Below are positions 6,769 to 62,425 of a DNA stretch of 64,000 nt, piece after piece (positions within the stretch are counted from its first letter, which is position 1; each line of letters starts with the position of its first letter). Position numbers and translations under genes: made by a program. The stretch lies in assembly GCA_017640445.1 (NCBI GenBank), contig JAEPQQ010000008.1, positions 2,536 to 66,535 of the forward strand, in the 5' to 3' direction. Source of the DNA: Bacteroidia bacterium. GTDB taxonomy: Bacteria > Bacteroidota > Bacteroidia > NS11-12g > UBA9320. The notes below the pieces were generated by a model that did not search any database, was not told where the DNA came from, and saw only the letters and a list, made by a program, of their open reading frames with translations.

Positions 6769-6794
6769 CGGAAACCGGTAATTCCAGTTCAACC

Positions 6795-6831
6795 ACAACA
6801 AAAAAGCCACCACAGGTGGCTTTTTTGTTGT
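6795..6831. terminator. Bidirectional-type intrinsic terminator
   Basis: Perfect 17-bp inverted repeat ACAACAAAAAAGCCACC-ACA-GGTGGCTTTTTTGTTGT. Confidence 0.85.
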
Positions 6832-6885
6832 TATCGGCTTTTACACGTCGTGGACATATTATATTTGGACAATCAGAGTTCCATC

Positions 6886-7326
6886 ATGAGATTATCTATA
6901 ATTTTATTTGCGTTGTTCGTTGGAACAGCATTCAACGGTATAGCACAAGATGCCTTAAAACAAACCGAAATTGTGAACGGTTCGGCCCACCTAACCGGTA
7001 GCTTTCCCTACACTAAATTTCTAAAAAAATACAAAGGTGAAAGCGACCTCGTCATTCACGTGTGGTATAATGCTACCTCCAGTAGCTTATCAAAAAAGGA
7101 AATCAAGGCAGGAGCAGATGAGATCTACTTCTTGTATGGAAGAAACCAGAAAACCGGCCTTTCGGAAATGGCATTTAAGTTTGGCTCCGGGGCCCAAAAG
7201 GCCTTTTCCAAGAAAAAGGAAGATGATTTGGTTGAGTTAATCGACTTCTTTCAGTTTGATGTGTTTCCAGAGCAAAAATTTAATAGCGCCATGGCTAGAG
7301 AAGCTCTGGATGAAGCCCTGGAGTAG
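6886..7326 (+). CDS. Hypothetical exported protein
   Basis: ATG at 6886 gives a Bacteroidota-type signal peptide (MRLSIILFALFVGTAFNGIAQ). No family recognised. Confidence 0.65.
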   Translation: MRLSIILFALFVGTAFNGIAQDALKQTEIVNGSAHLTGSFPYTKFLKKYKGESDLVIHVWYNATSSSLSKKEIKAGADEIYFLYGRNQKTGLSEMAFKFGSGAQKAFSKKKEDDLVELIDFFQFDVFPEQKFNSAMAREALDEALE

Positions 7327-7329
7327 GCC

Positions 7330-16052: not shown

Positions 16053-16193
16053 ACTTCTTAGTGCTTATACCATTTCGGGTATTCGACCAGCGAGGGATCA
16101 GCTACCGTCGTCAATACCAATGTAAATTACTATCTTAGAGGGCTAATCATAGGACATACCTATGTTCTTTCTTCTCATTAAATACCGAATCCA

Positions 16194-18944
16194 ATGAACT
16201 TAAAGAATTACCTCTGCCTTGTCATTTTATGTTTTTCGTTAAACGTATTTGGCCAGATTCCCAATGTAATACCGTATCAGGGACATATCGCCGATACCTC
16301 GGGAAAGGGTTATGATGGAAACTTCGATTTCTCATTCACAATAAAAGATAACTCCGGGTCACAGCTGTGGACCAGCGGTACCATTTCTGTTCCGGTTGAC
16401 GACGGAGCCTACTCGGTTAGTCTTGGTGAAAGCCCTCAAACCGCTTTGACATCTTCCATATGGCAAAACGACATACTGTTTCTGGAAATTTCCTTTGACG
16501 ATGGCGTTAATGGTTCGGAAACACTTTCACCAAACGTTCAGATCTTACCGGTGCCCTATGCACTGCGTGCTGCGATCGCCGATAGTGCTGCAAACACCAA
16601 TGGACAACTAGGCTGGGGAGACTCCTTAGTACTGCGGGATGCAAGTGGAGATAAACGGTTTGTTCTCAACCCAAATACGGGTGAGTTTAAGATCATGCAG
16701 GACGATACCATTTGGTACGAAGTAGAAAGCAACTCGCCCCCCAAAACGAATGTAAGTTATGGCGATAATAGCCTAACCACCGAATACGTTCGGATGAATG
16801 GGAAGGATTACACAAAAAACACAAGAACCAAAGACGGGTATACCATCGAGCGTTTTGAGCAACATTCAACCGATGCAGGCAATAACGATACAATGAACTT
16901 TACCCGAACCCTGGATAAAAACAAATGTGTGGTTTCTGCCACCTACAAGGTTTTTGATAAAAAAAGGGGAAGGGTGAAGGTGTGTACGTACAGTTACAAA
17001 TGCCCGGGTGGAGATATTCTTTCCGTGAAATGTAAAACGCTGGCAGGGGCAACCCCCGACGAGCCTGATGTGACGGATAACAAGGAAACGGATACCAAAA
17101 CCGAGGAAAAAACAGAAGACGGTAAACTTCAGATGGTTACGGTCGATACCCGAACCGGAAACGAAGTCAAAACTACTTCGGACGCCAAAGATTCTTGTTT
17201 CGTAGTTGAGGCGAGTAAGATTGTGCTTAAGACCGCCAATGGAGAATACGTGGTTAAGGTAGATAAAGATGGGAAAGTGAAACAGGAGGCCAAAAAGAAC
17301 GGTGGAGATGGCCTCATAATTGGTATGGACGATGAGAATAACGAACTATCCATTGAAGACAGCCTGATCCTTAAATACCGGTTCATAAGCCCAACCCAAA
17401 TCAGAATGTTGGTTCAGGAGTTGGGTGTACAGCAAGCCAAACTCTATTTTGAACAATTGGATCTGGAGAATAAAGAAATTGTAACTGGAGGTCTGGAAAA
17501 CTTAAAAAGACTGGTTGATTCTGTTTTTAAGCATAAGATCGTGTCGCAAAAAACCAAAGATTCTATTGAGGTGCTTTATAATGCTTTTGGCCACTTTATT
17601 CAATTCCTGGATGTGGAAGAGTTCAAAGAGTTGAACCAACATGTAGAGCGTATCAGAACGTATGAACCAGGAAAGGTCATAGAAGAAGATACGGATGTGG
17701 CAACAGGAGCTTCCGTAAAAACAACCCGAGACCTTCAGGAGGGCAAGGACATTATAGAAGGATTGAAGGGAAATGACATCATAATGAGTGACACGCCCTA
17801 CGTTACAACGTACAAGTATGATGTTACTTCGAGTACGCCTGTTGAGGTAAAAACCAATCCTGTGAGTTCTACGGTGACCTATGACGGACTTGATCGTGTT
17901 GTGAGGGAGAACGACTCGGAACAACATCACGACATCTATGATGGAAAAACACATCAAATAACCCGAACACACAACGTGAAAGATAGCTCAATAACAACTG
18001 CGGGCGCAACAACGTATTTTTATGATGGATTGGATCGGATAGTGACCAAGTCAGAAGGAGAAATAACCCACGAGTACGATGCGGCCAATTCGATTATTGA
18101 GGAGACCTACGATCCGGATGATAATTCATTGGAATATGATGGATTGTTTAATCGACACCATCGAATAGATACAAATGCATTTGTAGAGAGCTTTGTTGAC
18201 GGGAACAATCGGGAACTAAGCGTGTTGTATGAGCCGTCAGACAGTATTATTAACTACAGTGGGGTGCGATTTGTTGAGTGGCAATTCGATAACAACATTA
18301 CCGTATTAACCTCTCTGGGGCCTGGCCAGAGTTCACTTGCCAATTTTGATCCTGGCACTAACTCGGGTTTGGGAATTACCTTGAATCAGAGCGACAGAGT
18401 GATCCAAATGGGCGACCCATTTGGTGGTAAAATTCCGGTACAGATGGACTCGCTGTTTGCCATGGACTTTGGGGCCGTAAACGGGAATTTTGAAGTAAAT
18501 GGAAACCTCTCCGTAAATGGTAACATTTCCAAGCAGTCAGGTAGTTTTAGAATTGACCATCCACAGGATCCTTACAACAAATACCTCGTTCATTCTTTTG
18601 TAGAATCGCCGGATATGATGAACGTCTACAACGGAAACATCATCACAGACTCTTCCGGTACCGCCACCGTCGATCTGCCAGGATATTTTGAGTCGCTCAA
18701 TATGGATTTTAGGTACCAGCTGACCTGTATCGGCACCTTTGCACAAGCCATTGTGCTTGAAAAGGTTAACGGTAATCAGTTTAAAATTCAAACCGACAAA
18801 CCTGGCGTTGAGGTAAGTTGGCAGGTAACCGGAATCCGAAAGGACCCTTTTGCCAATGACAATCGACTTGAGGTAGAGCAAGAGAAAGAAGAGGGAAACA
18901 AGGGTACACTCCTCTATAAACCTACGCAAACAAACAAGAAATGA
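16194..18944 (+). CDS. Exported phage-tail-fibre-like protein without a T9SS CTD
   Basis: Signal peptide. N-terminal IPYQGHIAD..G...V.V.DG.YSV.LG...I.PVPYAL.A domain. C-terminal VNGNLSVNGNISKQSGSFRIDHP.DP.NKYL.HSFVESPDMMNVYNG...YQLT.IG...VSWQVTG.R domain, typical of bacterial fibre-like proteins. Confidence 0.65.
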   Translation: MNLKNYLCLVILCFSLNVFGQIPNVIPYQGHIADTSGKGYDGNFDFSFTIKDNSGSQLWTSGTISVPVDDGAYSVSLGESPQTALTSSIWQNDILFLEISFDDGVNGSETLSPNVQILPVPYALRAAIADSAANTNGQLGWGDSLVLRDASGDKRFVLNPNTGEFKIMQDDTIWYEVESNSPPKTNVSYGDNSLTTEYVRMNGKDYTKNTRTKDGYTIERFEQHSTDAGNNDTMNFTRTLDKNKCVVSATYKVFDKKRGRVKVCTYSYKCPGGDILSVKCKTLAGATPDEPDVTDNKETDTKTEEKTEDGKLQMVTVDTRTGNEVKTTSDAKDSCFVVEASKIVLKTANGEYVVKVDKDGKVKQEAKKNGGDGLIIGMDDENNELSIEDSLILKYRFISPTQIRMLVQELGVQQAKLYFEQLDLENKEIVTGGLENLKRLVDSVFKHKIVSQKTKDSIEVLYNAFGHFIQFLDVEEFKELNQHVERIRTYEPGKVIEEDTDVATGASVKTTRDLQEGKDIIEGLKGNDIIMSDTPYVTTYKYDVTSSTPVEVKTNPVSSTVTYDGLDRVVRENDSEQHHDIYDGKTHQITRTHNVKDSSITTAGATTYFYDGLDRIVTKSEGEITHEYDAANSIIEETYDPDDNSLEYDGLFNRHHRIDTNAFVESFVDGNNRELSVLYEPSDSIINYSGVRFVEWQFDNNITVLTSLGPGQSSLANFDPGTNSGLGITLNQSDRVIQMGDPFGGKIPVQMDSLFAMDFGAVNGNFEVNGNLSVNGNISKQSGSFRIDHPQDPYNKYLVHSFVESPDMMNVYNGNIITDSSGTATVDLPGYFESLNMDFRYQLTCIGTFAQAIVLEKVNGNQFKIQTDKPGVEVSWQVTGIRKDPFANDNRLEVEQEKEEGNKGTLLYKPTQTNKK

Positions 18945-46398: not shown

Positions 46399-47370
46399 CT
46401 AGTGCTTCATAAATCGAATGGTTGTTGATTTGGTTCCATCGGTTAACCTACAGAAGTATAATCCCGCTGGGGTGTTGCTCGTATTCAGTACGAAACCACT
46501 TTCTGTTTTTGGGGAATTTAGTTCTACCTTTTTTCCGGTAGCCGTAAAAACCTCAAGTCGTGTAGTGTTGATGTTAAATCCGCTCCCAACGTAAATAGAT
46601 GTCTGGTCCGTTACGGGGTTTGGAGAAACTTTGGCTACTATCTCGTTGGCAGTTTCGTCTACAGAAGATACACCTTCGGGGTTAAACGTGTACACCGTGT
46701 TCTCGGCTGGAACACCATCCAGGCGTTGGTCAACGTCAAAAACCACTTCCGGGTCTTGAGGATCGCCAATTAACTCCTGCATTTCAGGGAAATAACCGTT
46801 AAACGGGTCATAACGCAAGAGACCAATTTCAGGGCCATTTCCTCCGCCAAAAGCTGCAACACCGGTAATCTGGTGAGGACCAATGTGGACGGAAACCACG
46901 TTTCCTTTTTCATGAAGCCATAATTGTACGTTTATGAAGTCGGTTGTGTCGTGATTCACCAGCCCCATATTGTTCCATTCAAATTTCAGAATGCGATTCG
47001 GCGAAGTCCCAGTGATTTGATAATTGATCGAACTGTTCTCGCCTTTTGGCTTTAGCGCAGCGTAATAGGCCTCCAGAGTCAAACCATGAAAGTTATAGTC
47101 GACCAAATAGGCGTCCCGCCAAATGGTAATTCCTGAACCCTTGCTCATGTCAAACTCTTTGCCAAAGACGGAAAAGCTGAAGGGTATCTTGGCATTATAA
47201 CTTTCTCCACCAGGAGAATTTGTGACCACCGTTGGAGATTCCAGATGCTCATATTTCTCTGACGTAGTCTCAACTGAATAAGTGAATTTCTGTGCCAACA
47301 CACTCGTCGCCGGGCTCAGAAGAAGCGCAAAAACAATGACGCTTCTGATAAGTAATCCTGTATTTTTCAT
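46399..47370 (-). CDS. T9SS type A sorting-domain protein
   Basis: ATG at 47370 gives a signal peptide. IPFSFSVFG, GTSPNRILKFEW.N, NVQLWLHE; C-terminal VSPNPV...FTATGKKV...GLYFC. Confidence 0.8.
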   Translation of the reverse strand: MKNTGLLIRSVIVFALLLSPATSVLAQKFTYSVETTSEKYEHLESPTVVTNSPGGESYNAKIPFSFSVFGKEFDMSKGSGITIWRDAYLVDYNFHGLTLEAYYAALKPKGENSSINYQITGTSPNRILKFEWNNMGLVNHDTTDFINVQLWLHEKGNVVSVHIGPHQITGVAAFGGGNGPEIGLLRYDPFNGYFPEMQELIGDPQDPEVVFDVDQRLDGVPAENTVYTFNPEGVSSVDETANEIVAKVSPNPVTDQTSIYVGSGFNINTTRLEVFTATGKKVELNSPKTESGFVLNTSNTPAGLYFCRLTDGTKSTTIRFMKH

Positions 47371-47458
47371 ATGTTTTTTTTGACAAATTAGAAGTGTTGG
47401 GCAAGTGCAGCCAAACATCCAAGACGAACAACAGTAGCAATAGATCATCAACGGTTGT

Positions 47459-50643: not shown

Positions 50644-50671
50644 GGTAGGGTGTTTCCCCTATATGTTGTAT
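50644..50671 (+). promoter_or_regulatory. Putative ECF-sigma (autoregulatory) promoter
   Basis: GGTAGGG(50644)-N16-TGTAT(50667), with the same boxes and spacing as the motif upstream of pgsB. Confidence 0.6.
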
Positions 50672-50693
50672 AAATAATTAGAAGGAGCAATAA

Positions 50694-51191
50694 GTGAACG
50701 TGATGGACGAGTTCAAAGCCCTGTTTGACGAGTGTGCAGAAGGCCTTCGAAACTATATTTATTATAAGTTTAGCGATGAAGAATTGGCAAATGATATTGT
50801 ACAGGATGCCTTCATGAAGATATGGGAAGTACGGGAAACAGTGCAATGGAAATCCGCAAAAGGATTGTTGTACACTACGGCCACCAATCTTGCTAAGAAC
50901 CATTTGAAACACCAACAAGTGAAGCTTAATTTCAGTTTAATAAATAATCAGCCGGAAAGCGATTCCACAACACCCCATTTTATGTTGGAGCAACAAGAGT
51001 TTGAACTGCAACTTAAGGGTTGTATAGGCCGGCTACCACCGCCCTCTCGCGAGGCTTTCTTGCTCAACCGAATTGACAAAAAGAAGTATCGGGAAATTGC
51101 GGAGATGCTCGAGATCAGTATAAAAGCCGTTGAGAAGAGAATCAGTATCGCAATTAAGCAGCTAACCCAGTGTGTAGGTTTTAAAATCTAG
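50694..51191 (+). CDS. ECF RNA polymerase sigma-70 factor
   Basis: Region 2 ANDIVQDAFMKIWE...LY....N...N; region 4 LPPPSREAFLL.R.....Y.EIAE.L.IS.KAVEKR. Confidence 0.92.
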   Translation: MNVMDEFKALFDECAEGLRNYIYYKFSDEELANDIVQDAFMKIWEVRETVQWKSAKGLLYTTATNLAKNHLKHQQVKLNFSLINNQPESDSTTPHFMLEQQEFELQLKGCIGRLPPPSREAFLLNRIDKKKYREIAEMLEISIKAVEKRISIAIKQLTQCVGFKI

Positions 51192-52151
51192 ATGATGGAG
51201 GAAAAGTCAAACATAGAAAAGTGGGTAGAAAGCGGATTGGACAGTGAACTGCTCAGGAGGCTGAAGGATGAGAATCCGAATGACATTGAACTGCAGAAGG
51301 CAGAGCTGATTGTGAATGGGGCTGAGAACCTCCGACCCAATTACCAAACCAGTAAACAAGATCTATGGGAGCAGGTTCAAGGAAAGATTACCGAACAAGC
51401 AGATGCTCAACCCACAACCACCAAGCAACTCAGGTTTAATGGTTGGATGGCAGCCGCCTCGGTTATCCTCGTAGTGGGTGTGTTGGCCATATGGAGAATG
51501 GTAGCGGGCTCTGGTGAGGACCTGATTGCCATACAGACCAATGTGGCGGAGACGAGCAAGGTGCAACTGCCAGATAAATCATGGGTGGTCCTAAATGCTG
51601 GCAGTAAGCTTGAATACAACATCGACGATTGGTCGGATAAAAGGGTTGTGCACCTGAATGGAGAGGCGTTCTTTGATGTGGAAAAGGGTTCGAAATTCAC
51701 CGTGAATACAGCGCTTGGTAGGGTGACCGTTTTGGGTACTTCATTTAATGTTAAAACACGAGAAGAAGTGTTGGTGGTAAGTTGTAAAACCGGTAAGGTT
51801 CAGGTGAACAACTCGCTTGGAGAGGAAGTACTGGTGCTTCCAGGCAGGTCTGTGCGATTCCAAAAAGGTAGTCGAGCTGTTGAGTCCGAAATTAATTCTG
51901 CTCACATAGATAGTTGGGTCTCTGGTCATTTCTATTTTACAGATGTCCCTATTGCAGAGGTGCTGAGTGAGTTGGAAAATCAGTTTGGTGTGAAAATAAC
52001 CGTTAGTGATTCAACCATCTATGAAAAACGCTATACAGGGTTTATAAACTCGAAAACAGAGCTAAGTCGGGTAGCTGAAGATATTTGTTTACCGCTTAAT
52101 CTGAGGTTTGAGATCAATGAAGGTGGAAAGGAAATCAAAATTGATTACTAG
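51192..52151 (+). CDS. FecR-family anti-sigma factor
   Basis: Single TM (WMAAASVILVVGV), LPDKSWVVLNAGSKL, RVVHLNGEAFFDV, VTVLGTSFNV and W..G.F.F...P..EVL.ELE..FGV.I. Confidence 0.92.
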   Translation: MMEEKSNIEKWVESGLDSELLRRLKDENPNDIELQKAELIVNGAENLRPNYQTSKQDLWEQVQGKITEQADAQPTTTKQLRFNGWMAAASVILVVGVLAIWRMVAGSGEDLIAIQTNVAETSKVQLPDKSWVVLNAGSKLEYNIDDWSDKRVVHLNGEAFFDVEKGSKFTVNTALGRVTVLGTSFNVKTREEVLVVSCKTGKVQVNNSLGEEVLVLPGRSVRFQKGSRAVESEINSAHIDSWVSGHFYFTDVPIAEVLSELENQFGVKITVSDSTIYEKRYTGFINSKTELSRVAEDICLPLNLRFEINEGGKEIKIDY

Positions 52152-54711
52152 GCTAATAACGTCAGTCTTCCTTGTCCTCTGTTCCATATATGCTTGTGGG
52201 CAGACGGCTCCACTGGTAACCGTGTCTGTTGACTCTACCAGAATGGAGGAGGTCTTACGTGATCTTGAAAAGCAATCCGGGGCACACTTTGCCTATAGTC
52301 CCGAGTTTATTAGCGGAATGTATGTGTCTCTTCACTTGGAAAATCAGCCGCTCGACACGGTGATTCATCGTATGTTGAGTAATACGAATGTCTGTGTCCG
52401 GGAATCGGAGAATTTGCACTATTTATTGTTTAGATGTTCTATCAAACAATGGAAGCTCAAGGGGACGGTTTATGATCAGGAAACCGGAGAGACTCTACCC
52501 TTCGCAGATGTTTCGCTGGGCAATCACCGGGGTACAGTTGCCAATAACGGAGGACAGTTCTCCTTTTTTAATGTGACTGAAGACACCGTTCGGGTGCGTG
52601 TATATTACATTGGCTATCAACCCAGGGAAGTTATGGTTACCCAAAACACGGGTGAGGTTGATGTATCGCTTGATCGAACATCTACCGTATTGAAAGGGAC
52701 CCAGGTTGATGTCTATACCGAGTTTCTAAAGACCGGAAAGTTTTATAGTCAGCTTTCTATTAATACCGATCTTGTTAAAGGTTTTCCAACACTGGGAGAA
52801 CCTGACCCAATAAAAAGTATCAAGCTCTTGCCTGGGGTTGGTGGTAATGCCGAAACCAGCACGGGTATTGCTATGCGTGGAGGAAAATTTGATCAGACAA
52901 TGATCATGTTTGACGATTTCCAGTTATTGCATGTAGATCATTTCTTTGGCCTGTTCAGTGCGGTTAACCAGAATATGGTAAAAGATATTCAGGTTTACCG
53001 AAGTGGGTATAGTTCCAAATATTCAGGTTTTACCAGCGGACTCATCCGCATTACAGCTAAGGATGGAAATCGAAAACGGGTTTCTGGAGGTTTTTCGACC
53101 AATATGTACAGCTCCAGTGCATACCTTGAAGTGCCTATCCTAAAAAATCGATGGAGCACTGCTCTGTCATTCAGAACGGACAACGCCTGGGTGAATCATG
53201 AGTTTTGGACCGATGCAATTGTGCTTCCTCACATTGAGAACGAAATTCGGGTTAAATCTCCTTCTGCTGCAAATGCCGAAGACACTGAAGGCAGTATTGA
53301 TTTTTACGACCTAACGTTTAAGACGCGCTACCAACTCTCAGACCGACATAACATCAGCATCAGTTATTTTAATAGCCACGATCGGGTTGAAACATTGTAC
53401 AATAATGCGGTGAGTGATGAAGAGGATGTAATTAGTCAATTGGATTTGACCTCGTTTTGGAGAAATGGCGGGGCTTCCATAAAATGGGAGCACCAGATCA
53501 AGGAGAACTACAAGGCCGAGTTGATTTACACCCGGTCGCGGTTTAACAATGTAAGCCGGTTTAATCACATCCTGGAAGTGATCGAGGATGATACCCTGGA
53601 GAATATCCAGGATTTGGGAGTGACAAATCGATTTACCCAAGAGCACTATCGATACGATATTGAAATTAACCGTCCTAAATCCAACTGGTTTCTCGGAGCA
53701 GATGTTACTGTTTTTGAATCGCGGTTTAACTCAGTGGAAGAGGATGAGGAGTTTACCGATAATTTTAGAAAAAACTTGCCCGCGGTGTACGCTGAAAACA
53801 GAAGGACGTTGTCCAGCAAGTTGGAGATTCTATACGGATCGAGGTTTACGTATGAGGATGAAGATGCACAACTGTTTGTAGAACCCCGGGTGTCGGCATT
53901 CTACAAATTCGGAAAACGACTTAAATCAACGGTTTCGTATGGTTTGTATTACCAACATGCCAAACAATATGTTCCAGACCAGAGGGAGGGTCTGGTGCCC
54001 GATTATTGGTTGCTTCCCGATTATGAGTTAACCTTTCCCACACGTGCGCATATAGCATCAATTGGGTTGTCATACACCAAGGCTCGTTGGCTGGTAAATG
54101 CCGAAGTGTTTTACAAAGATGTATCAGACATGGCAGAACAGTTTCCTTCCATAAGTGACCTGTTTGAAAGCAATGCAGACTTCGTTAAGGTTTTAAGTTC
54201 GGGCACCAGTAGGGTGTTAGGAGGTGACCTCGTGGTGCGAAAGGAATACAAGAAATCCAGCATATGGGTGGGTTTGGGATTAAATCAGGTGAGAAACGGT
54301 TCCGATTCAATTCGTCAATCGGGTTATCAACCGTATTACACCAACCTCGGCGATGTTAAGCTGGGTTATGTATACCGTTGGAAAAAGTGGGAGGCCGGTT
54401 TGAACTGGGTGTGGTTGGGAGGCCGAAAATACACCCACGTAGATAATGATCTTCAGCTCTTGTCGGATGTTGAAATAGGCAATGATCTGTTACCCGACTA
54501 CCATCGCTTAGATGCGTCGTTGGCGTATAAGCTCACCATAAAGAAGCTCAATGGCGCTCTGAGGGCTAATTTGTTTAATGTGTACAATAGGAGAAACACG
54601 AGAACTATCAACTTTACCCACCTCGAGAGTGCACCCACTACACAACCTCAGGCAATCTCTGTAGCCACGCTTGGGTTTAGACCAAACCTCACTCTGGAGG
54701 TCAACTTCTAA
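52117..54711 (+). CDS. TonB-dependent receptor/transducer with N-terminal STN-like signalling domain and CarboxypepD_reg-like domain
   Basis: STN-like EEVLRDLEKQSG.HF.YS; GTVYD.ETGE.LPFA; plug GEPD.IK.I.LLPGV...RGG.FDQ; C-terminal LPDYHRLD...NVYNR.N...F. Start may be TTG 52141. Confidence 0.88.
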   Translation: MKVERKSKLITRLITSVFLVLCSIYACGQTAPLVTVSVDSTRMEEVLRDLEKQSGAHFAYSPEFISGMYVSLHLENQPLDTVIHRMLSNTNVCVRESENLHYLLFRCSIKQWKLKGTVYDQETGETLPFADVSLGNHRGTVANNGGQFSFFNVTEDTVRVRVYYIGYQPREVMVTQNTGEVDVSLDRTSTVLKGTQVDVYTEFLKTGKFYSQLSINTDLVKGFPTLGEPDPIKSIKLLPGVGGNAETSTGIAMRGGKFDQTMIMFDDFQLLHVDHFFGLFSAVNQNMVKDIQVYRSGYSSKYSGFTSGLIRITAKDGNRKRVSGGFSTNMYSSSAYLEVPILKNRWSTALSFRTDNAWVNHEFWTDAIVLPHIENEIRVKSPSAANAEDTEGSIDFYDLTFKTRYQLSDRHNISISYFNSHDRVETLYNNAVSDEEDVISQLDLTSFWRNGGASIKWEHQIKENYKAELIYTRSRFNNVSRFNHILEVIEDDTLENIQDLGVTNRFTQEHYRYDIEINRPKSNWFLGADVTVFESRFNSVEEDEEFTDNFRKNLPAVYAENRRTLSSKLEILYGSRFTYEDEDAQLFVEPRVSAFYKFGKRLKSTVSYGLYYQHAKQYVPDQREGLVPDYWLLPDYELTFPTRAHIASIGLSYTKARWLVNAEVFYKDVSDMAEQFPSISDLFESNADFVKVLSSGTSRVLGGDLVVRKEYKKSSIWVGLGLNQVRNGSDSIRQSGYQPYYTNLGDVKLGYVYRWKKWEAGLNWVWLGGRKYTHVDNDLQLLSDVEIGNDLLPDYHRLDASLAYKLTIKKLNGALRANLFNVYNRRNTRTINFTHLESAPTTQPQAISVATLGFRPNLTLEVNF

Positions 54712-54728
54712 ATTTTTTTGAGATAATA

Positions 54729-54756
54729 GGTAGGGTTTTTTTCAGCTCTCCTGTAT
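54729..54756 (+). promoter_or_regulatory. Putative ECF-sigma promoter for the pgs operon
   Basis: GGTAGGG(54729)-N16-TGTAT(54752), matching the motif at 50644. Confidence 0.6.
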
Positions 54757-54824
54757 TCCTTTCAATAAATGCCAATTCCGGATGACGCAACACGTCAGTA
54801 CGGTGAGCTTAGAAAATTGAAAGT

Positions 54825-56015
54825 ATGTTGAGTTTGACCATTATTATCATTGTTTCTGTTGGGTTAATCGTGTTCGGCGCGATTGAATACTCGAATCACC
54901 AACAACAGGTAAATACAATACCCATTCGAATCCATATAAACGGGACGCGAGGTAAATCAAGTGTTTCGAGATTGATTGGTGCAGGTTTACGAGCTGGCGG
55001 TTACAAAACCATTACGAAGGTAACCGGTACGTTTCCAAGACTCATTACCTCCGAAGGGTTAGAATCTCCCATCCATCGTAAAGAAAAGGCAAACATTCTT
55101 GAGCAGTTAAAGATCATACGGTTTAGTGCAAGGCAAAAAGTAGACGTTTTGATACTTGAGTGTATGGCCCTAAAACCCCAGTATCAGAAGATTTGCGAAC
55201 ATCAAATGGTAAGGGCCACCCACGGGGTTATAACCAATATTCGGCTGGATCACCTGGATGTGATGGGCCCAACGTTAGACGACGTGGCCAAGGCTCTGTG
55301 TGGTACCATACCTAAGAAGGCACAACTTTTTACAAGCGAAGACCGGTGTTTTGATTACGTACAGAAAATAGCGCGTAAAAGAAAAACAGGAGTACATCAG
55401 TCGCTCGGATTTAAGATAACCGATGACGAAGTAAAAGGGTTTGACTACATCGAGCACAAGGCCAATATCGATCTGGCTATGGACGTCTGTTTGTCTCTTG
55501 GTGTTGATCGGGCAAAAGCTTTGGCCGAGATGCAGAAAACCAGACCAGACGAAGGTGCACTGACTCAGTCGTTTATTAAAACCGAACGTAAAAGAGTGAC
55601 CTTCTACAACGGTTTTGCCGCAAATGATCCGGAGTCCACACTCATGATTTGGGAATCGATTACCAGAAACCTGAATCAGGACGAGCAAAAAACCATTTTG
55701 CTGAACACCAGAAAAGATCGTCAGGATCGAGCACGTCAACTCATTGAAATGGTAGCCCATAGGATGGACTTTGATGTGGTGGCGCTAATAGGAGAGTCTG
55801 TCGATTTGGTTGAGGACCTGGCATTGAGAAATGGAATTTCCAGAAAGAAAATACTGAAGATCGGCAGGCCGTCGTCCGAAAAACAGTTTGCCCATATTGT
55901 AAAAGCTTCAAAGAGTTCGGCTACCGTTCTGGGCATTGGAAATATGGGGGCAGGAGGAGCCGAATTGGCTCAGTGTTTCGAACATCACGCAAACAAATTA
56001 AAAGAAGCAGTATGA
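54825..56015 (+). CDS. pgsB: Poly-gamma-glutamate synthase PgsB/CapB
   Basis: N-terminal TM; IRIHINGTRGKSS, K.TGT, ECMAL.P.YQ, ITNIRLDHLDVMGPT, NGFAANDPEST and GIGNM. Confidence 0.93.
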   Translation: MLSLTIIIIVSVGLIVFGAIEYSNHQQQVNTIPIRIHINGTRGKSSVSRLIGAGLRAGGYKTITKVTGTFPRLITSEGLESPIHRKEKANILEQLKIIRFSARQKVDVLILECMALKPQYQKICEHQMVRATHGVITNIRLDHLDVMGPTLDDVAKALCGTIPKKAQLFTSEDRCFDYVQKIARKRKTGVHQSLGFKITDDEVKGFDYIEHKANIDLAMDVCLSLGVDRAKALAEMQKTRPDEGALTQSFIKTERKRVTFYNGFAANDPESTLMIWESITRNLNQDEQKTILLNTRKDRQDRARQLIEMVAHRMDFDVVALIGESVDLVEDLALRNGISRKKILKIGRPSSEKQFAHIVKASKSSATVLGIGNMGAGGAELAQCFEHHANKLKEAV

Positions 56016-56470
56016 TAGAATTAGCAATTGTATTAGGTGTGGTAATAAGCCTTGTGAGTATCGAGGCATTTGGGTTGGCAGCGGGAGGCATTATAATTCC
56101 AGGGTATATCTCACTTCAACTTACCTCTCCCGACCGGATTTTTGGTACCCTGTTGGTTGCCTTTGCAACCTTCTTGTTAATCAAAGGGATTTCAAAATTC
56201 ACCTTTCTCTTTGGTCGTAGACAAATGGTAGTCGCCTTGCTGATAGGAACTATTTTGTCAATAGTGTCGCATCACTTTATGCTCTTTAACACAGAAACGT
56301 CTACAGCTGAGTTTAGTGCTGTTGGGTGGGTGGTGCCAGGTCTTATAGCACATTGGGCTGCCAATCAAGGCTTCCTAAAGACCATGGGTATGTTGTCCAT
56401 AACATCGGTGGTGGTAAGGCTACTTGTAATTATATCGTTTAACGGGAGTCAGTTCCCACAATTGTACTAG
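56012..56470 (+). CDS. pgsC: Poly-gamma-glutamate biosynthesis protein PgsC/CapC
   Basis: ATGA overlap with pgsB. Hydrophobic, with GGIIIPGYISL, LFGRR and VGWVVPGLIAHW. Confidence 0.9.
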   Translation: MIELAIVLGVVISLVSIEAFGLAAGGIIIPGYISLQLTSPDRIFGTLLVAFATFLLIKGISKFTFLFGRRQMVVALLIGTILSIVSHHFMLFNTETSTAEFSAVGWVVPGLIAHWAANQGFLKTMGMLSITSVVVRLLVIISFNGSQFPQLY

Positions 56471-56473
56471 AGT

Positions 56474-57592
56474 ATGAATAGAATATCGATTAGATCAACA
56501 CACATTCTGAGCATTTTGGGCACGCTTGCTATTGCTTGTCTCTTAATTGTAGAAAACACAAAAGTGGAGAGTAGACAGGACTGGTATAGCGATAAACTCG
56601 AAGCTTCTCGATTGTCGAGCGCAGCCCACGGTTATATCAAGGATCTGCGATTTAAGAATGGCATTTTTATTGACAATATCAACGACCCAAATGAAACAGG
56701 CCTTATTGGTCAGGAGTTTAGTCCAATCTCTTCTGGAAGGGGGTCTCTGTCGATTAAATCTTCTACCGTAAATCCAAATTTTGCGGCATTGGTTTTAGAA
56801 CTGCTGAAGGATGCCGGGGTAGAGAAAGGAGACAATGTAGCCATATGCATGACGGGGTCTTTCCCGGCTTTGAATATGAGTACAATCGCAGCCCTTCAGA
56901 CGCTTGAGGCTAACCCAATTGTGATATCTTCCGTAACCTCCTCCACCTGGGGGGCTACAGATCCCGATTTTACCTGGCTGGATATGCATAATATGCTGCA
57001 CAGCAAGGGTGTTTTTAAGCATAAAGCCGTGGCCGCTTCTATTGGTGGAAACCAGGATATAGGTCGTGCCCTTAGTGCCGAAGGGCGGGAGTTGGCACTT
57101 CAGGCTATTGATCGAAATGGTTTGATACCGATTGTTGGGGCAAATCTCGAAGAAAACGTCGCCAGGCGTATGGAAATATTTCAAAGCCATGCATTATCCA
57201 AACCCATCAAGCTCTACATAAACGTGGGAGGTGGGGTTGCTTCTCTAGGTTCAAAGAGGAATGGGTTTGCTTTGAAGGCGGGCTTGAATGAAGACGTTTT
57301 GCTGGCCAGTCTTCCGGATAAAAAAGGTGTGGTATTTCAGATGGCACAGATGAAGGTTCCCATCATCCATCTCCTGCATCTAAACGTTCTGATGAACAAG
57401 TTCAATATTCCCTATGAACCCATGCCAATTCCCAAGGTAGGAACGGGAGACTTGTATCACACACTTAAATACGATTTGGTCATTACGGGCATATGCCTGG
57501 TAGTTCTTACTTCTCTCATAGGGGGAATCGTATATCAGGATAAAAAGAGAAATGAACTGGGATCCGAAATAATACAAACAAAAAGAAAGTAA
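56474..57592 (+). CDS. pgsW: Poly-gamma-glutamate system protein PgsW
   Basis: DPNETGLIG.E...I....G.L..K..T.NPNFAAL, GSFPALN, SSTWGATDP and INVGGG. TM at both ends; follows pgsC. Confidence 0.85.
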   Translation: MNRISIRSTHILSILGTLAIACLLIVENTKVESRQDWYSDKLEASRLSSAAHGYIKDLRFKNGIFIDNINDPNETGLIGQEFSPISSGRGSLSIKSSTVNPNFAALVLELLKDAGVEKGDNVAICMTGSFPALNMSTIAALQTLEANPIVISSVTSSTWGATDPDFTWLDMHNMLHSKGVFKHKAVAASIGGNQDIGRALSAEGRELALQAIDRNGLIPIVGANLEENVARRMEIFQSHALSKPIKLYINVGGGVASLGSKRNGFALKAGLNEDVLLASLPDKKGVVFQMAQMKVPIIHLLHLNVLMNKFNIPYEPMPIPKVGTGDLYHTLKYDLVITGICLVVLTSLIGGIVYQDKKRNELGSEIIQTKRK

Positions 57593-57593
57593 T

Positions 57594-58523
57594 ATGAAGC
57601 CTGCACAGATTAAATTGAACGTATTTATCCTTTTATGGATAGGTTTTGCACCTTTGTCAGAGGCAGCAAAAAAAGTTCTAACGCCAACACTGAATAACAA
57701 AAAAGTTCAACTGAAAACAGGTGAGCTGAAACCAACATTGTACTATGCGTTATCCAAGAAATATGCAACGGTGCTGAGAATTGGAGGTCCTGGAGAGGTT
57801 ACCATATTTCTGAGAACCAAAATGCAGGAGGACGAGGCTTCAGACAGCAAGTACCACTTGCGGTATGTGCTCGATGGAAAGATCGTTAAAGTGAAGCCCG
57901 TCGGTAGTTCAAAGGCGTCAAAGAAGACACTGGTCGTAGGGAAGTCGTACCGTGTTTCAGTGGTGAAGAAAGTACAGATAATTATCCCACCCGGAAAGCA
58001 CAGGTTAGAGGTGTTTTCATTGAACGATGAACGCCTGGTGTTTTCGAAATACTATTTCGAGAAACATGTAAAGCCAAAGTGGAAGGTCAAACAACCGATT
58101 AACAACATGGAAGCAACATCTCTTACAACGGTTGAGAGTAAAAAGGTGTTGAATTACTACAGGATTGATTCAGAGAACGGGATGAAGATAGAGATGGACG
58201 AGAACACCTACCTTCGACTTCTTGTTCGGGTAGAGTTTAAGCACTCCATGTTTTCTGACAACGAAATGCGTATCCAGATGAAGGAAAACGGGAAGGTTGT
58301 TTACACGTTCAAGGTTTCTTCTGTTCGCTCTAAGTACGTTGTTTACACCGAAGGAGGAAAACTGATTCCGGGAACTCTGAACAAAATCTATATCCGGGTA
58401 CCTGAGGGTAAACACAAGTACGAATTTGTAGTAGCCGATAAATCAAAAACCGCACTGATCAAGGCTTCCTACGATAAGCTACGATTTCCAACGAATAGCA
58501 ACGTTCCTATTTCCAACCCTTAA
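57594..58523 (+). CDS. Exported Lys-rich hypothetical protein with two tandem homologous beta-domains (pgs operon)
   Basis: Starts 1 nt after the pgsW stop. Signal peptide. Internal duplication (YYAL...LRTK...IIIPPGKHRLEV vs YYRI...VRVE...IRVPEGKHKYEF). Confidence 0.7.
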   Translation: MKPAQIKLNVFILLWIGFAPLSEAAKKVLTPTLNNKKVQLKTGELKPTLYYALSKKYATVLRIGGPGEVTIFLRTKMQEDEASDSKYHLRYVLDGKIVKVKPVGSSKASKKTLVVGKSYRVSVVKKVQIIIPPGKHRLEVFSLNDERLVFSKYYFEKHVKPKWKVKQPINNMEATSLTTVESKKVLNYYRIDSENGMKIEMDENTYLRLLVRVEFKHSMFSDNEMRIQMKENGKVVYTFKVSSVRSKYVVYTEGGKLIPGTLNKIYIRVPEGKHKYEFVVADKSKTALIKASYDKLRFPTNSNVPISNP

Positions 58524-58532
58524 ACAGTCAAT

Positions 58533-59372
58533 ATGATAAAAGCAAGAGATGTTCTGATTGGCAGTCTGGTGTTGATTCTAATGAGTAAGAAGGTGGAGGC
58601 CCAGGATTTAACACCAGGCAGTAAAATGTGGTATAGCAACTATACCTATTTCAAACTCAATAGTCGTTTCTATCTGGACAATTATCTTGTCACCTCTTTT
58701 GACTTGAAAGAGGGGCATCCGTTTGGTTTTGTTCAGACCGATTTGGCCCTGAACTACAAACTTTCAAAAAAGCTTCGGTTCCTTGTGGCTTATTCGAACG
58801 CCCAATTCAGATACCGCGATTCGTACGAAGAGCGATATGATAAAGAACCGAATGCATTAAACGCGTTCTCAGTTCACCGATTGGGTGTAGGTGCGCAATA
58901 TCGATTAAAACTCACACGTACTTTTAGGTTTAACCAGAAGTTGGTGACACAATATTATGTTCCACAATTAGAGAAGTTTAGGTGGAGGGTCGTTTATTCG
59001 GGTAAGCTTGAGTACAAGCATCGGAAAGCACCGCTTCAAATGGTTCCCTACGTTCAATACTTCTTGTATTACTACGCTGGGGGGAAGGAGTTTGAGTTGT
59101 CCGAAGATCTGGATGAACCTGATGACGAGCCACAATTCACAGATCCTGCAAACGGCTTCCATCGTTACAGGTTGAGGGCGGGTTTGAGGTTTAAACCATT
59201 GCCTTCTTGTGACCCCTTGAGCCTTACGCTGTATTACGCAATGCAACGCGAGTTTAACCTTGACGGTTTTGGCGGTGAGTTAAACATTCCAGTGGAAGGC
59301 CGAAGAAGACCCTTACTGCCATTCAACAACTTTAATATCATTGGTCTTCAGGCGAATTTGGTGTTTAATTGA
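58533..59372 (+). CDS. Putative outer-membrane beta-barrel (DUF2490-like), pgs operon
   Basis: Signal peptide, alternating amphipathic strands, K.WY, HRL, RWR, HRYRLRAGL.F and C-terminal IIGLQANLVFN. Confidence 0.65.
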   Translation: MIKARDVLIGSLVLILMSKKVEAQDLTPGSKMWYSNYTYFKLNSRFYLDNYLVTSFDLKEGHPFGFVQTDLALNYKLSKKLRFLVAYSNAQFRYRDSYEERYDKEPNALNAFSVHRLGVGAQYRLKLTRTFRFNQKLVTQYYVPQLEKFRWRVVYSGKLEYKHRKAPLQMVPYVQYFLYYYAGGKEFELSEDLDEPDDEPQFTDPANGFHRYRLRAGLRFKPLPSCDPLSLTLYYAMQREFNLDGFGGELNIPVEGRRRPLLPFNNFNIIGLQANLVFN

Positions 59373-59920: not shown

Positions 59921-62425
59921 CTATCGAATTACAACCTTCCGTGTTACCATACCATGGTCTGTTTTTATCCGAATCACATACATTCCCTGTTGGAGATTGT
60001 TGGTTGGTATCAAGCATGAAGTACCACGTACCTGTGTGTTTCGGTACTTGGCTCTACCTAGCATGTCGAAGATAAATACCTCGTGTACTCCCGTAAGGTC
60101 AATTGAAACGTTCAGTGGAGTTCCAAGGGCAACCGGATTAGGAGAAACAACAATGTTCGTGTTAAGGTTCAATGCTTCAATGCCTGATACTCCTGAATTG
60201 GATAAGGGGGAGACCCAAACACCACGCCCATAGGTGGCGGCGTATATCTCATTTGTGACCTGGTTAATCTCCAATTCATTTACTTTAACATTAGGCAAGC
60301 CTTTGTTGAAGGGTTCCCACTGCGTCATGTTCTTGTTGCGGTAGTATACACCTACTTCCAAACCGAGGTATATGGTTTCCAAAGAGTCGTTGTTCCAAAC
60401 AGTAGTGAGGCTTTGAAAAGCAGGAAGGTTTTCCTTCCATTCGGTCCAGTTTTTGCCTCCATCTTTGGTTATCAGAAACTTGGTGGAGCCGGCAACGGCA
60501 AGCGCCACCCAGTTCGCATTTTTCGGATGTACACTAATGGAGTTTATTTCGAAACGTGTAAGGTTTCCATAAAGCAAACGATCCCATTCCGTTTTTCCGC
60601 CATCCGTAGTGCGGTACAGGAAGTAGGCCGATGCGGCATAAATGGTATCACTTCCGGTTGGTGCAACTTTGATATGTGAAGGGTGGAACTTCTGGGAGAT
60701 AGGTTCAAAGGTCTTTCCAAAGTCTGTGGAGCGGTAAACGTAGTCGTACCCGGCATAAAGTGTGTTGGTGTCGGTAGGGTCTTTTTCAAAGGCGGTTACC
60801 CATTTTCCTGAGCCAAACTTTGAATACAAACCAGTTACGGGTTTAGACGTCCTGCCGTCTTCCGAATATACAAAACTCCCGTTCTGACTCGAAGCAAACA
60901 ACGTATGGCGCTTATTGTCGATTACCACTGTTTCCGTGCCATCGCCTCCGTGATAATGAAACCACGTTCCCTCTTTAAACACAGCAGACCCGTTGTCTTG
61001 CGAACCTACGGAAACAATGCATGGGTCGGATTGCGAAATACCTAGGCGATAGATTTGTTGGATACCCAAACCGTTAGATAGATTTACGAAACTGTTCTTG
61101 CCTATTGTTAAACTGGAAGGAGTGTCCATTCGATAAAGTCCTCCATCACTACCCACCCAGAGTCTGCCACTATTATCGTACAGCAGCACTTCTATGTCTG
61201 CATGTGTATAGGCCAGGTTGGGAAAGCTATTGGTATACGAATGATGACTCACAATGGAGAACGTTTTGGCTCCATCCAGTGAACGCCAAATGTTAATACC
61301 ACCCACGTATACCTCATTGCTATCGTTATCGGACACGGCAATTTCCATGTTTCGCGGTGCCTGGCCCAAACTCCCGGTACCCTGCATAGAATATCCCAAC
61401 AGATTTTCACCTGATTTACTCATCTTGAGAAATGAGCTTCCGCCGTTTCGAGATAAGTAAATACCCTCCATGCGTTTTCCGTTGCACTGGATTACATAGA
61501 GGTTTTTAGGAGCAGCTCGGGAAACGGCAATCATTTTAGGCTGATTGTTGGAGTGGTTAAAATCGAGTGAACTAAAGTTTCTTCCTCCGTCCGTCGACTT
61601 CCATATACTGTCGCCAGATGCGTATACAATGCTGGTGTCGGTTCTGTGTCGTTCAATGTCGTAACACTTGCCACTAAGCACGTTGTGCCAGGTTTCTCCA
61701 TGGTCGGTGCTTCGAAACACGCCGGCATAGGTGTCGGTTAACATGAGTTCCCCTTTTTTGATTGGGTTTGCGCTTATTTGGTGGATGTTGCCTCGTCCAT
61801 CGAATTCAATTTCTTTCCAGGTCTTACCGGCATCTATGCTTTTAAACACACTGCCATGGTTAATTCCCCAGTAATAGATATCGGGGTCAAAAGGGTCTAT
61901 GGTTAAAGAATACACCCTAAGGTTAACCAAAAAGTCGCTCAGAGATACCCAGTTCTTACCACCATCGGTACTCTTCCAAACTCCACCGGTTTGAGAACCA
62001 ACCAATATGTGTTTCTCGTTATTGGGGTCAATGGCAATAGAAGTTAATCGGCCAATGCCAGGGTCGAATGTTTGAACACCCTTTGTTTCGGTAGGGCCGA
62101 GTGATCGCCAGTTTCCCGGGAAATTCTCATCTTCCGTTTTGGATGCTTGGTTTAATTGAGCGTTGTATCGGTCAAGTTCCTGCGAATAAAAGTGAGCATC
62201 CGGAACCTTGCCATCTTCCATAACAGAGTGCAGGGCATTGTACTCCCAGCGCTTCCAATCCATATAGCCCGACCCTTTTCCCTTTGGGTGAGTTGTGAAA
62301 TAGGCCTCGGCTGAGTCTTGAATTGCATGCAGTGTATAACCTCCGTTTTGAATCATGTCGTGATACGTCTGAGCCCAGCAGACTGAGGTTAAAAAGGAAA
62401 GGCCAAGGAGAAGAAAACGAACCAT
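59921..62425 (-). CDS. VPS10/BNR-repeat (glycosyl-hydrolase-like) beta-propeller protein with T9SS type A CTD
   Basis: W.SLGP...GIGR; many S.DGG..W/F Asp-box repeats; HAD; G.QDNG; GGDG; YAATYGRGVW; C-terminal SPNP...FDMLGR...GMYVIRI...KVVIR. Confidence 0.88.
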   Translation of the reverse strand: MVRFLLLGLSFLTSVCWAQTYHDMIQNGGYTLHAIQDSAEAYFTTHPKGKGSGYMDWKRWEYNALHSVMEDGKVPDAHFYSQELDRYNAQLNQASKTEDENFPGNWRSLGPTETKGVQTFDPGIGRLTSIAIDPNNEKHILVGSQTGGVWKSTDGGKNWVSLSDFLVNLRVYSLTIDPFDPDIYYWGINHGSVFKSIDAGKTWKEIEFDGRGNIHQISANPIKKGELMLTDTYAGVFRSTDHGETWHNVLSGKCYDIERHRTDTSIVYASGDSIWKSTDGGRNFSSLDFNHSNNQPKMIAVSRAAPKNLYVIQCNGKRMEGIYLSRNGGSSFLKMSKSGENLLGYSMQGTGSLGQAPRNMEIAVSDNDSNEVYVGGINIWRSLDGAKTFSIVSHHSYTNSFPNLAYTHADIEVLLYDNSGRLWVGSDGGLYRMDTPSSLTIGKNSFVNLSNGLGIQQIYRLGISQSDPCIVSVGSQDNGSAVFKEGTWFHYHGGDGTETVVIDNKRHTLFASSQNGSFVYSEDGRTSKPVTGLYSKFGSGKWVTAFEKDPTDTNTLYAGYDYVYRSTDFGKTFEPISQKFHPSHIKVAPTGSDTIYAASAYFLYRTTDGGKTEWDRLLYGNLTRFEINSISVHPKNANWVALAVAGSTKFLITKDGGKNWTEWKENLPAFQSLTTVWNNDSLETIYLGLEVGVYYRNKNMTQWEPFNKGLPNVKVNELEINQVTNEIYAATYGRGVWVSPLSNSGVSGIEALNLNTNIVVSPNPVALGTPLNVSIDLTGVHEVFIFDMLGRAKYRNTQVRGTSCLIPTNNLQQGMYVIRIKTDHGMVTRKVVIR

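Follow-up and report, generated by a model that had tools for sequence, protein, structure and literature searches.

In the stretch of DNA considered here, 64,000 nucleotides from the genome of a marine member of the Bacteroidia (hereafter the window), a cell-surface signalling switch stands directly ahead of genes that make poly-gamma-glutamate (gamma-PGA). The switch is a trio of genes that encode an extracytoplasmic function (ECF) sigma factor, a FecR-type regulator and a TonB-dependent transducer. Behind it come pgsB, pgsC, a gene of the TIGR04332 family, and the genes of a basic exported protein and of a small beta-barrel. We think it probable that cell-surface signalling releases the sigma factor, which directly transcribes this pgs operon, an operon devoid of pgsA. 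A switch dedicated to an exopolymer appears to us the best explanation of what the sequences display in gene content, gene order, conservation and distribution of a promoter-like motif.

According to this proposal the transducer would bind a ligand at the outer membrane, and its N-terminal signalling domain would then act on the periplasmic C-terminal domain of FecR. The ECF sigma factor, once freed, would guide RNA polymerase to a pair of promoters that read GGTAGGGT-N15-TGTA, one ahead of the sigma-fecR-transducer genes and the other ahead of pgsB. The second transcript would provide the synthase proteins (PgsB, PgsC and the TIGR04332 protein) as well as the basic protein and the barrel, whose probable task is to convey the polyanion through the periplasm and the outer membrane or to hold it there.

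Why this matters can be said briefly. The known targets of cell-surface signalling are almost entirely genes for the uptake of iron carriers or glycans, and an exopolymer synthase, if it is truly a target, widens this range. Next to nothing has been described of how bacteria with two membranes regulate and export gamma-PGA, nearly all the work on its regulation that our search brought up being about Bacillus. The locus makes a compact hypothesis, with a single sigma factor, a single anti-sigma factor and a single sensor, a candidate promoter of 27 nt and two candidate proteins for crossing the envelope.

Genes of the locus

Eight open reading frames (ORFs) of the + strand lie within positions 50644-59372, the signalling trio first, then the pgs genes, the basic protein and the barrel. 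A preliminary description of the window had spoken of eight co-oriented, tightly packed genes, and the list of ORFs together with the family scans bears this out: the distances from gene to gene are, in order, 0 nt, an overlap, 113 nt, an overlap, 3 nt, 1 nt and 9 nt. The same description began the locus at 50644, which turns out to be the first base of a promoter-like motif (P1); no gene starts there. The features are the following.

50644..50670, + strand: promoter-like motif P1, GGTAGGGT-N15-TGTA, its end 32 nt before the likely ATG of the sigma gene at 50703
50694..51191, + strand: ECF sigma factor, Bacteroidota expansion type (Sigma70_r2, r4_2; TIGR02985)
51192..52151, + strand: FecR-type anti-sigma factor or sigma regulator with one membrane span (PF04773, PF16344)
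52108..54711, + strand: TonB-dependent transducer with STN-like domain, CarboxypepD_reg beta-sandwich, plug and barrel (Pfam, AlphaFold2, Foldseek)
54729..54755, + strand: promoter-like motif P2, GGTAGGGT-N15-TGTA, inside the 113-nt gap, its end 69 nt before the ATG of pgsB
54825..56015, + strand: PgsB, ligase subunit of poly-gamma-glutamate synthase, with an N-terminal membrane span (TIGR04012)
55973..56470, + strand: PgsC, membrane subunit with four hydrophobic spans (TIGR04011, PF14102)
56474..57592, + strand: TIGR04332 'poly-gamma-glutamate system protein', bitopic (312.3 bits)
57594..58523, + strand: exported protein, basic and rich in Lys, its family unnamed (composition, homologs)
58533..59372, + strand: small outer-membrane beta-barrel of about 12 strands (AlphaFold2, Foldseek)

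Scans of the Pfam and NCBIfam type name six of the eight proteins; in these scans the basic exported protein and the barrel match no family. Alignment with the copy in G007, a relative from the same genus, suggests ATG 50703 as the probable start of the sigma gene. The receptor gene probably starts at ATG 52117, with the signal peptide retained, and pgsC at ATG 56012, since its relatives align from residue 14; pgsC would then overlap pgsB by 4 nt. No SusD or glycoside hydrolase is encoded among the eight genes, as had been remarked earlier of the genes that follow the receptor; the locus lacks the SusC-like transporter paired with an adjacent SusD-like lipoprotein and glycan-degrading enzymes that marks a polysaccharide utilization locus of Bacteroidota.

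The trio beside pgs genes in other genomes

An alignment of six PgsB sequences was used to scan one genome per species, and the best 80 of 572 confirmed loci were compared; a scan of the genome collection with a single PgsB protein as query found no relative. Flanking DNA was limited, 18 of the 80 loci having less than 4.5 kb upstream and 24 less than 8 kb downstream. Counting as linked those loci that have the sigma, FecR and transducer genes beside pgs genes, we find six distinct ones: the window, G007, and the loci that we call L071, L072, L073 and L174 (L068 is the same as a G007 contig, and the two count as one). The trio takes four arrangements in these six, upstream, divergent, downstream and 3.2 kb away, and the linked loci make up six of the eight with a PgsB that has 58% identity or more to that of the window. 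In L071 the trio is divergent from pgsB, in L072 it lies downstream on the same strand, and in L073 upstream on the same strand. L174, a metagenome contig, has sigma, FecR and transducer genes, two further genes, then pgsB, pgsC, the TIGR04332 gene and the basic protein gene, all on one strand, the trio being 3.2 kb upstream.

The block of the window recurs in G007, where it falls on two contigs. One contig ends with the sigma factor (66% identity), FecR (50%) and residues 4-815 of the transducer (61%); the other starts with the last 57 residues of the transducer (72%), followed by pgsB, pgsC, the TIGR04332 gene, the basic protein gene and the barrel gene (67-88%). The genes that flank the block differ between G007 and the window. 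Among 41 relatives searched, which include the genome of the window itself (G000, 4.0 Mb, 98.3% complete), PgsB scores above its cut-off in G000 and G007 only, and only these same two have an ortholog of the transducer, the next best proteins being 24-29% identical. Within the genus of the window, the receptor ortholog and PgsB are both present in two of 11 genomes and both missing from the other nine.

Further away the association fades. A sample of the phylum (401 genomes) has a PgsB match at E up to 1e-30 in 12 genomes, above the cut-off in 11, and none of the ten other pgs loci of this sample has a trio within about 8 kb. In one of them the genes immediately upstream encode a histidine kinase and a response regulator of the OmpR type, and the others have T9SS peptidases (T9SS standing for type IX secretion system) or a gamma-glutamyltranspeptidase set. 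Two of the loci of the species scan (L076, L078) have divergent AraC-type genes beside pgs in place of the trio. A scan of metagenomes with an alignment of transducers yielded 80 loci of distant paralogs, at most 28% identical, with pgs genes nearby in L174 only. The linkage is limited to a small group of Flavobacteriia-type genomes and is no general feature of pgs loci in diderm bacteria. The preliminary description had called for a search of pgs neighbourhoods for an upstream trio: the linkage does recur, in six loci, though not always upstream. Its central idea, namely that the trio controls polyglutamate synthesis, is thus supported by sequence comparison, through linkage, co-occurrence and the motif, for a narrow clade only.

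A promoter-like element

Alignment of the window with G007 reveals one conserved block, GGTAGGGT-N15-TGTA, in each of two spacers that have otherwise diverged, before the sigma gene and before pgsB. In the 4.0 Mb of G000 the exact motif is matched twice, at P1 and P2, against about 0.4 matches estimated from base composition. G007 has three exact matches: before its sigma gene, before its pgsB, and 41 nt before the ATG of a gene for a secreted G8/CEMIP beta-helix protein. The relaxed form TAGGGT-N15-TGT[AT] is found near the start of pgsB in three of the 80 loci, exactly L068, L071 and L073, out of seven matches in 2.63 Mb; two of the other four precede genes for a G8/CEMIP T9SS protein (L071) and an M12B T9SS protease (L073). 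The core TAGGG-N16-TGT, looked for within 300 nt upstream of pgsB, is present in five of the six linked loci (L071, L073 and L174 as well as the window and G007) vs none of 85 unlinked ones, about 0.0026 matches being expected per region and two loci having been skipped for their short flanks.

These matches lie 25-160 nt before start codons, on the coding strand only. Because it consists of two blocks at a fixed spacing, we read the element as promoter-like, and we tie it to the sigma factor because its presence tracks a conserved sigma region 4.2 together with the trio. It would then be the promoter recognized by this sigma factor, and it predicts further members of the regulon, in the form of T9SS-secreted enzymes.

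Several sites touch upon this prediction. The motif stands before G8/CEMIP genes in two species, in G007 (contig G007:C188, locus L062, 1501-1527, - strand) and in L071 (15001-15025, before the ORF at 15055-17976); the L071 protein carries a T9SS sorting domain and its gene lies just past the cassette. G000 has no G8/CEMIP homolog. From their upstream sequence these genes may be further members of the regulon. In L073 a motif at 2826-2850 precedes the ORF at 2897-5122, which encodes an M12B reprolysin-like T9SS protease and is followed on the same strand by an ORF of 170 aa and the sigma gene. L072 shows another pattern: GATAGGGG, then GTC 16-17 nt further on, occurs at about 6443, upstream of pgsB, and at about 11934, just past the barrel gene. 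A conserved hairpin or terminator at the motif was also considered and dropped, as a hairpin-like call at 50645-50662 is not conserved in G007; the 113-nt gap contains no terminator-like site.

The signalling proteins

The sigma factor is a protein of 165 aa reduced to regions 2 and 4 (Sigma70_r2, 35.4 bits; Sigma70_r4_2, 51.3 bits). It passes TIGR02937 (79.3 bits, cut-off 42.9) and falls slightly below the cut-off of TIGR02985 (124.9 bits, cut-off 126.4). It shares 66-67% of its residues with its G007 counterpart and 40-42% with the sigma factors of L071, L073 and L174. Region 4.2 (FLLNRIDKKKY.EIAE...K.VEK) is near-identical in all five loci that have the TAGGG core. The sigma factor of L072, which lacks this core, is divergent, with 22% identity to that of the window.

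FecR matches PF04773 (63.3 bits) and FecR_C, PF16344 (42 bits). Behind a cytoplasmic N-terminus, a single hydrophobic span, residues 80-98, precedes periplasmic FecR and FecR_C domains, and the VLGT.F motif is invariant in all six sequences aligned. Only two FecR genes are detectable in G000 at E below 1e-8. In L174 a gene for an S41 (Prc/CtpA-family) peptidase, at 7124-8305, lies directly upstream of the sigma gene; in Pseudomonas, as stated in a portion of one source, S41-family proteases process components of cell-surface signalling, and this same portion gives the cleavage site of FoxR, Gly-191/Thr-192, with a model of the signalling (PMC11637429).

The receptor, 867 aa, had been described as bearing an STN domain. 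Pfam models are hesitant about it: CarbopepD_reg_2 reaches 48.8 bits, Plug 19.8 bits (cut-off 23.9, passed by the relatives in L071, L072 and L073) and STN 16.1 bits (cut-off 28.4; the L072 homolog has 55 bits). No NCBIfam model matched, and a sequence search of the PDB gave 0 matches at E 0.01. A database search returned 50 homologs, many of them annotated as TonB-dependent receptors, with Pfam Plug, TonB_dep_Rec, STN and FecR_C. The weak calls are upheld by the structure model and its Foldseek matches, which agree with the transducer architecture proposed at the outset. The AlphaFold2 model, built from 38 sequences (pLDDT 83.0, pTM 0.79), comprises a signal helix, a beta-alpha-beta domain (33-106), a beta-sandwich (112-185), a plug and a barrel, residues being numbered from ATG 52117. 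Foldseek places full-length FpvA and FoxA first (E 1.6e-24, TMq 0.51-0.53), then FepA, BtuB and FecA. The receptor is thus predicted to have the fold of a TonB-dependent receptor, with its plug within the barrel. A conserved stretch of alternating hydrophobic residues before the plug resembles a TonB box (LKGTQVDVYTE in the window, LDEVLIVTEYL in L071).

A model of the complex sets transducer residues 44-106 against FecR residues 235-303, with a score of 0.80 vs 0.04 for the best control; among solved complexes 58 of 80 reach this mark, among mismatched pairs 2 of 110. The runs have at least 92% of their contacts in common, with a partner pLDDT of at least 86. The N-terminal domain of the transducer is accordingly modelled in contact with FecR_C; because similar complexes have already been solved, the score measures a likeness to them and is no proof of binding.

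The poly-gamma-glutamate genes

The assignment of the synthase is straightforward. PgsB scores 435 bits against TIGR04012 (cut-off 222.7), and its ATP-binding loop of the Mur-ligase type, NGTRGKSS, is invariant in six of six sequences. PgsC scores 115.9 bits against TIGR04011 (cut-off 96.45) and 103 bits against PF14102. The third protein, with 312.3 bits, is well above the cut-off of TIGR04332, which is 100; it has hydrophobic spans at both ends (residues 6-24 and 330-348). It had been called pgsW; the family membership holds, and we did not find this name used for it in the literature. It follows pgsC in 74 of the 80 related loci, at the place that PgsA has in Bacillus, and the Atlas clusters that group with it bear the same name and come from several diderm phyla. 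In G000 there is neither a match to the PgsA/CapA domain, PF09587, nor a gamma-glutamyltranspeptidase (CapD/GGT). The product would presumably be gamma-PGA.

The basic protein comes after the TIGR04332 protein in 56 of the 80 loci. With 14.2% Lys, a pI of 9.93 and a net charge of +29 (median pI of 51 homologs, 9.79), it deserves the description as Lys-rich and exported that it had received; its Atlas clusters are unnamed and show weak resemblances to CBM-like beta-sandwiches. It is a candidate for a periplasmic binder of the polyanion. The last protein had likewise been recognized as a beta-barrel, and its AlphaFold2 model (pLDDT 77.5) indeed has about 12 strands, the nearest folds being outer-membrane barrels, those of OmpG, NanC, FapF and PgaA (TMq 0.36-0.44, E 4e-4 to 5e-3). 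Its family is found in seven of the 80 loci, and it might be an exit pore or an anchor for the polymer. Sequence searches of the PDB with the TIGR04332 protein, the basic protein and the barrel gave nothing usable. The idea of a single conserved pore family was dropped: the barrel has no detectable relation to the longer barrel-like proteins (371-415 aa) that come after the basic protein in other loci, the hhalign probability being 11%.

Other cassettes add variations on this theme. Two genes past the basic protein, L075, a cassette of the Bacteroidales type, has a gene for a poly-gamma-glutamate hydrolase (PF05908, 150.5 bits, 14465-15103), which lends indirect support to the assignment of polyglutamate as the product of the family. 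In L037 a protein of 1011 aa encoded at 4300-7335, just upstream of pgsB-pgsC-TIGR04332, combines PGA_cap (CapA-like, 210.8 bits), PKD and T9SS sorting domains, and would by its domains be a secreted form of CapA-like protein. Large T9SS proteins of the Peptidase_C25 (gingipain-like) family adjoin the cassette in L036, L037 and L075, and LVIVD-repeat proteins in L036, L037, L038 and L075. A second type of pgs locus is found in Bacteroidota (L039-L043, from G397, G409, G253, G273 and G269), with a PgsB of 240-270 bits and no basic protein; its neighbours are a gamma-glutamyltranspeptidase of about 660 aa, an AstE/AspA-like protein and a DctM-like permease, which looks like a set of genes for making and recycling the polymer.

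Alternative explanations

Several observations weigh against a direct control of the pgs operon by the switch. P1 and P2 are alike at 18 of 27 positions, a figure reached by 216 of 2000 dinucleotide shuffles and hence not significant alone. Variants with one mismatch are not enriched, whether in G000 (20 vs 16 in the reversed control) or in G007 (16 vs 25). The motif was loosened at its last base, and then at its sixth, after L071, L073 and L174 had been seen, so that the figures of five in six and none in 85 are only partly independent of its definition; among the 85 unlinked loci, moreover, some contigs are duplicates, such as L038 and L115. The sigma genes of L071 and L073 are not directly preceded by the motif, and autoregulation is therefore not general; L072 lacks the core motif. 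The element is also unlike the GGAAC/CGTC type of many ECF promoters. Of the 80 best PgsB loci, 76 have no trio in the flanking DNA examined, where short flanks may hide some links. Finally, L069 and L070 (PgsB 69% and 60% identical to that of the window) have neither a trio within 10 kb upstream nor the motif, from which it follows that the cassette works in its absence.

The history of the transducers is a further difficulty. A tree of 17 rows puts G000, G007, L071 and L073 together (SH-aLRT 99) with L072 outside. A tree of 35 rows separates the linked transducers into three groups: G000 and G007 fall with three database proteins whose context is not known, L071, L073 and L174 join a single database protein, and L072 pairs with a paralog from G000, the deep branches being weak (69) and L072 carrying a long-branch warning. 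A single origin of all linked transducers, which the smaller tree suggested, is not upheld by the larger one. The shared sigma region and motif nevertheless argue, from sequence, that five of the loci descend from one ancestor; L072 may have been recruited separately.

One may then imagine that the trio and its pgs neighbours are under separate control, the trio being devoted to nutrient-uptake signalling for its own receptor, the cassette being served by a promoter of its own, of the housekeeping or some other kind, and the motif not being the site of this sigma factor. The cassettes that do without a trio, L069 and L070 among them, fit this view, as does the likeness of P1 and P2, not significant alone, and trios are common beside paralogous receptors, a FecR gene being present in 27 of the 80 metagenome loci. 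We consider it unlikely all the same: the adjacency occurs in six loci and in four different arrangements, which contrasts with a single case of pgs nearby when the 80 loci with paralogous receptors are surveyed, and that one case is a linked locus. Trio and pgs genes come and go together within the genus, the motif precedes pgsB only in trio-linked loci, and behind the receptor there are no genes for uptake, be it a SusD, an ABC transporter or a binding protein.

Another explanation concerns the cue, which may come from the polymer that the cell itself makes and not from outside. The receptor would take up gamma-glutamyl fragments or metal-loaded polyglutamate produced by its neighbour genes, in a feedback of self-sensing. 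Such a loop resembles that of pyoverdine, where ferripyoverdine signals through FpvA and FpvR to PvdS, and a transducer dedicated to a biosynthetic operon is indeed the pattern of siderophore systems. That FpvA and FoxA are the best structural matches of the receptor goes in the same direction, although this likeness reflects the signalling domain and not the specificity for a ligand. In Bacillus subtilis, a part of one report states, gamma-PGA protects the cell from zinc and copper intoxication (PMC9045300). The missing gamma-glutamyltranspeptidase gene of G000 is also consistent with self-sensing, while the absence of linked inner-membrane uptake genes speaks against it. We regard the explanation as improbable. 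Carried further, and with the same low expectation in each of its parts, it would make of gamma-PGA a secreted capture polymer that reports on itself, the transducer recognizing the polymer or its metal- or nutrient-loaded form. The signalling would then amplify its synthesis along with a small regulon of T9SS-secreted enzymes (the G8/CEMIP beta-helix protein, the M12B protease) in marine Flavobacteriia, an improbable extension too. It is equally doubtful that this would amount to a pyoverdine-like feedback built around a polyamide, perhaps assembled more than once because the sigma factor of L072 is divergent and its motif different.

Least probable, and quite unlikely in our eyes, is a co-regulation by a different factor, the element being the site of a repressor, of an activator or of another sigma factor, and the ECF sigma acting elsewhere: a promoter role is deduced for a sequence unlike the ECF consensus, and the presence of the element before genes of T9SS-secreted enzymes in G007, L071 and L073 would suit a small regulon of any regulator, but its two blocks at fixed spacing, its place and strand before start codons and its tracking of sigma region 4.2 and of the trio point to the sigma factor, and no other regulator gene is common to the six loci.

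Relation to known systems

As a direct control of the pgs operon by the switch, the proposal may be set beside what is known. The signalling would be of the kind found in FecI/FecR/FecA of Escherichia coli and in FoxI/FoxR/FoxA and FpvI-PvdS/FpvR/FpvA of Pseudomonas aeruginosa, which have the same three-part locus as the window. The likeness extends to a FecR-type regulator that spans the membrane once and keeps a Gly-Thr, and to an N-terminal signalling domain predicted to touch the C-terminus of the regulator. The differences are that the apparent target in the window is a polymer synthase operon rather than the uptake genes of the receptor, that the receptor has an extra CarboxypepD_reg domain, typical of Bacteroidota, that no Fur-type or iron link is seen there, and that the element departs from the ECF consensus. 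The synthesis of pyoverdine, controlled by PvdS, is the nearest analogue for the control of a secreted product.

Another system of P. aeruginosa, VreA/VreR/VreI (PUMA3), has an atypical receptor component. As excerpts of two papers present it, its sigma factor drives genes other than those of nutrient uptake, which is the likeness to the window (PMC2729926, PMC7035377); the difference is that its targets belong to virulence and secretion, in a proteobacterium, with no polymer synthase. The nearest precedent is a partial one: in Bacteroides thetaiotaomicron, according to a part of another paper, disruption of four anti-sigma genes raised the expression of four capsular polysaccharide (CPS) loci (PMC2709373). 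The phylum is the same, the switch again comprises ECF sigma, anti-sigma and SusC-like protein, and a surface polymer is affected. As that part describes them, however, these switches belong to loci for glycan degradation that also hold SusD and enzymes, the capsule loci are not linked to them, and the effect depends on the expression of outer membrane proteins, which makes it indirect (PMC2709373). In the window, by contrast, there is no SusD or glycan enzyme, the polymer genes are adjacent and share the motif, and the polymer would be a polyamide and not a polysaccharide.

With PgsBCA(E) and CapBCADE of Bacillus the window shares a PgsB and a PgsC that pass equivalog cut-offs and a conserved ATP-binding loop. 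It differs in that G000 has no PgsA/CapA and no CapD/GGT, in place of which stand the TIGR04332 protein, the basic protein and the barrel, and in a control that is apparently exerted by an ECF switch; in Bacillus the regulators of pgs are ComP-ComA, DegS-DegU and SwrA. The other PgsA-less cassettes of diderm bacteria have the same order, pgsB-pgsC-TIGR04332-basic exported protein, the barrel family of the window being rarer. The parts, cell-surface signalling and the PgsA-less pgs cassette, are thus already known, and it is their wiring that is new. The preliminary description knew of no account of such an arrangement, and our search of the literature, supplements being outside it, likewise found no description of gamma-PGA genes under ECF sigma/FecR/TonB-dependent control, the work among the papers listed being on Bacillus or unrelated. 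A preprint on Cloacimonadota mentions PGA in Gram-negative bacteria, in a passage without these regulators.

Neighbouring genes

A gene for a transporter of the major facilitator superfamily (MFS) lies upstream of the block in the window; downstream, on the opposite strand, are genes for an SRPBCC protein and a BNR/sortilin T9SS protein. The latter, a T9SS-sorted protein of 834 aa at 59921-62425 (- strand), has no exact motif upstream, and neither has a T9SS-sorted protein of 350 aa with no other domain, at 46399-47451 (- strand). Base composition across the window gives no signal of an island. T9SS domains and the family of the sigma factor assign the genome to Bacteroidota. A remnant of the trio was sought in the 1.2-kb non-coding stretch upstream of pgsB in L069, and none is there. 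In G007 the MFS gene is found downstream of the block (L046, 279-1723); its protein aligns in two pieces, residues 1-73 and 70-453, with 84% identity, a sign of a frameshift or of an error in the assembly. Genes for a pirin and a nitroreductase lie upstream of the block both in G007 (L059, 5840-7352) and in L072 (4756-6134), two loci in which the trio stands on opposite sides of the pgs genes, and this common flank may hint at an older, shared site of insertion.

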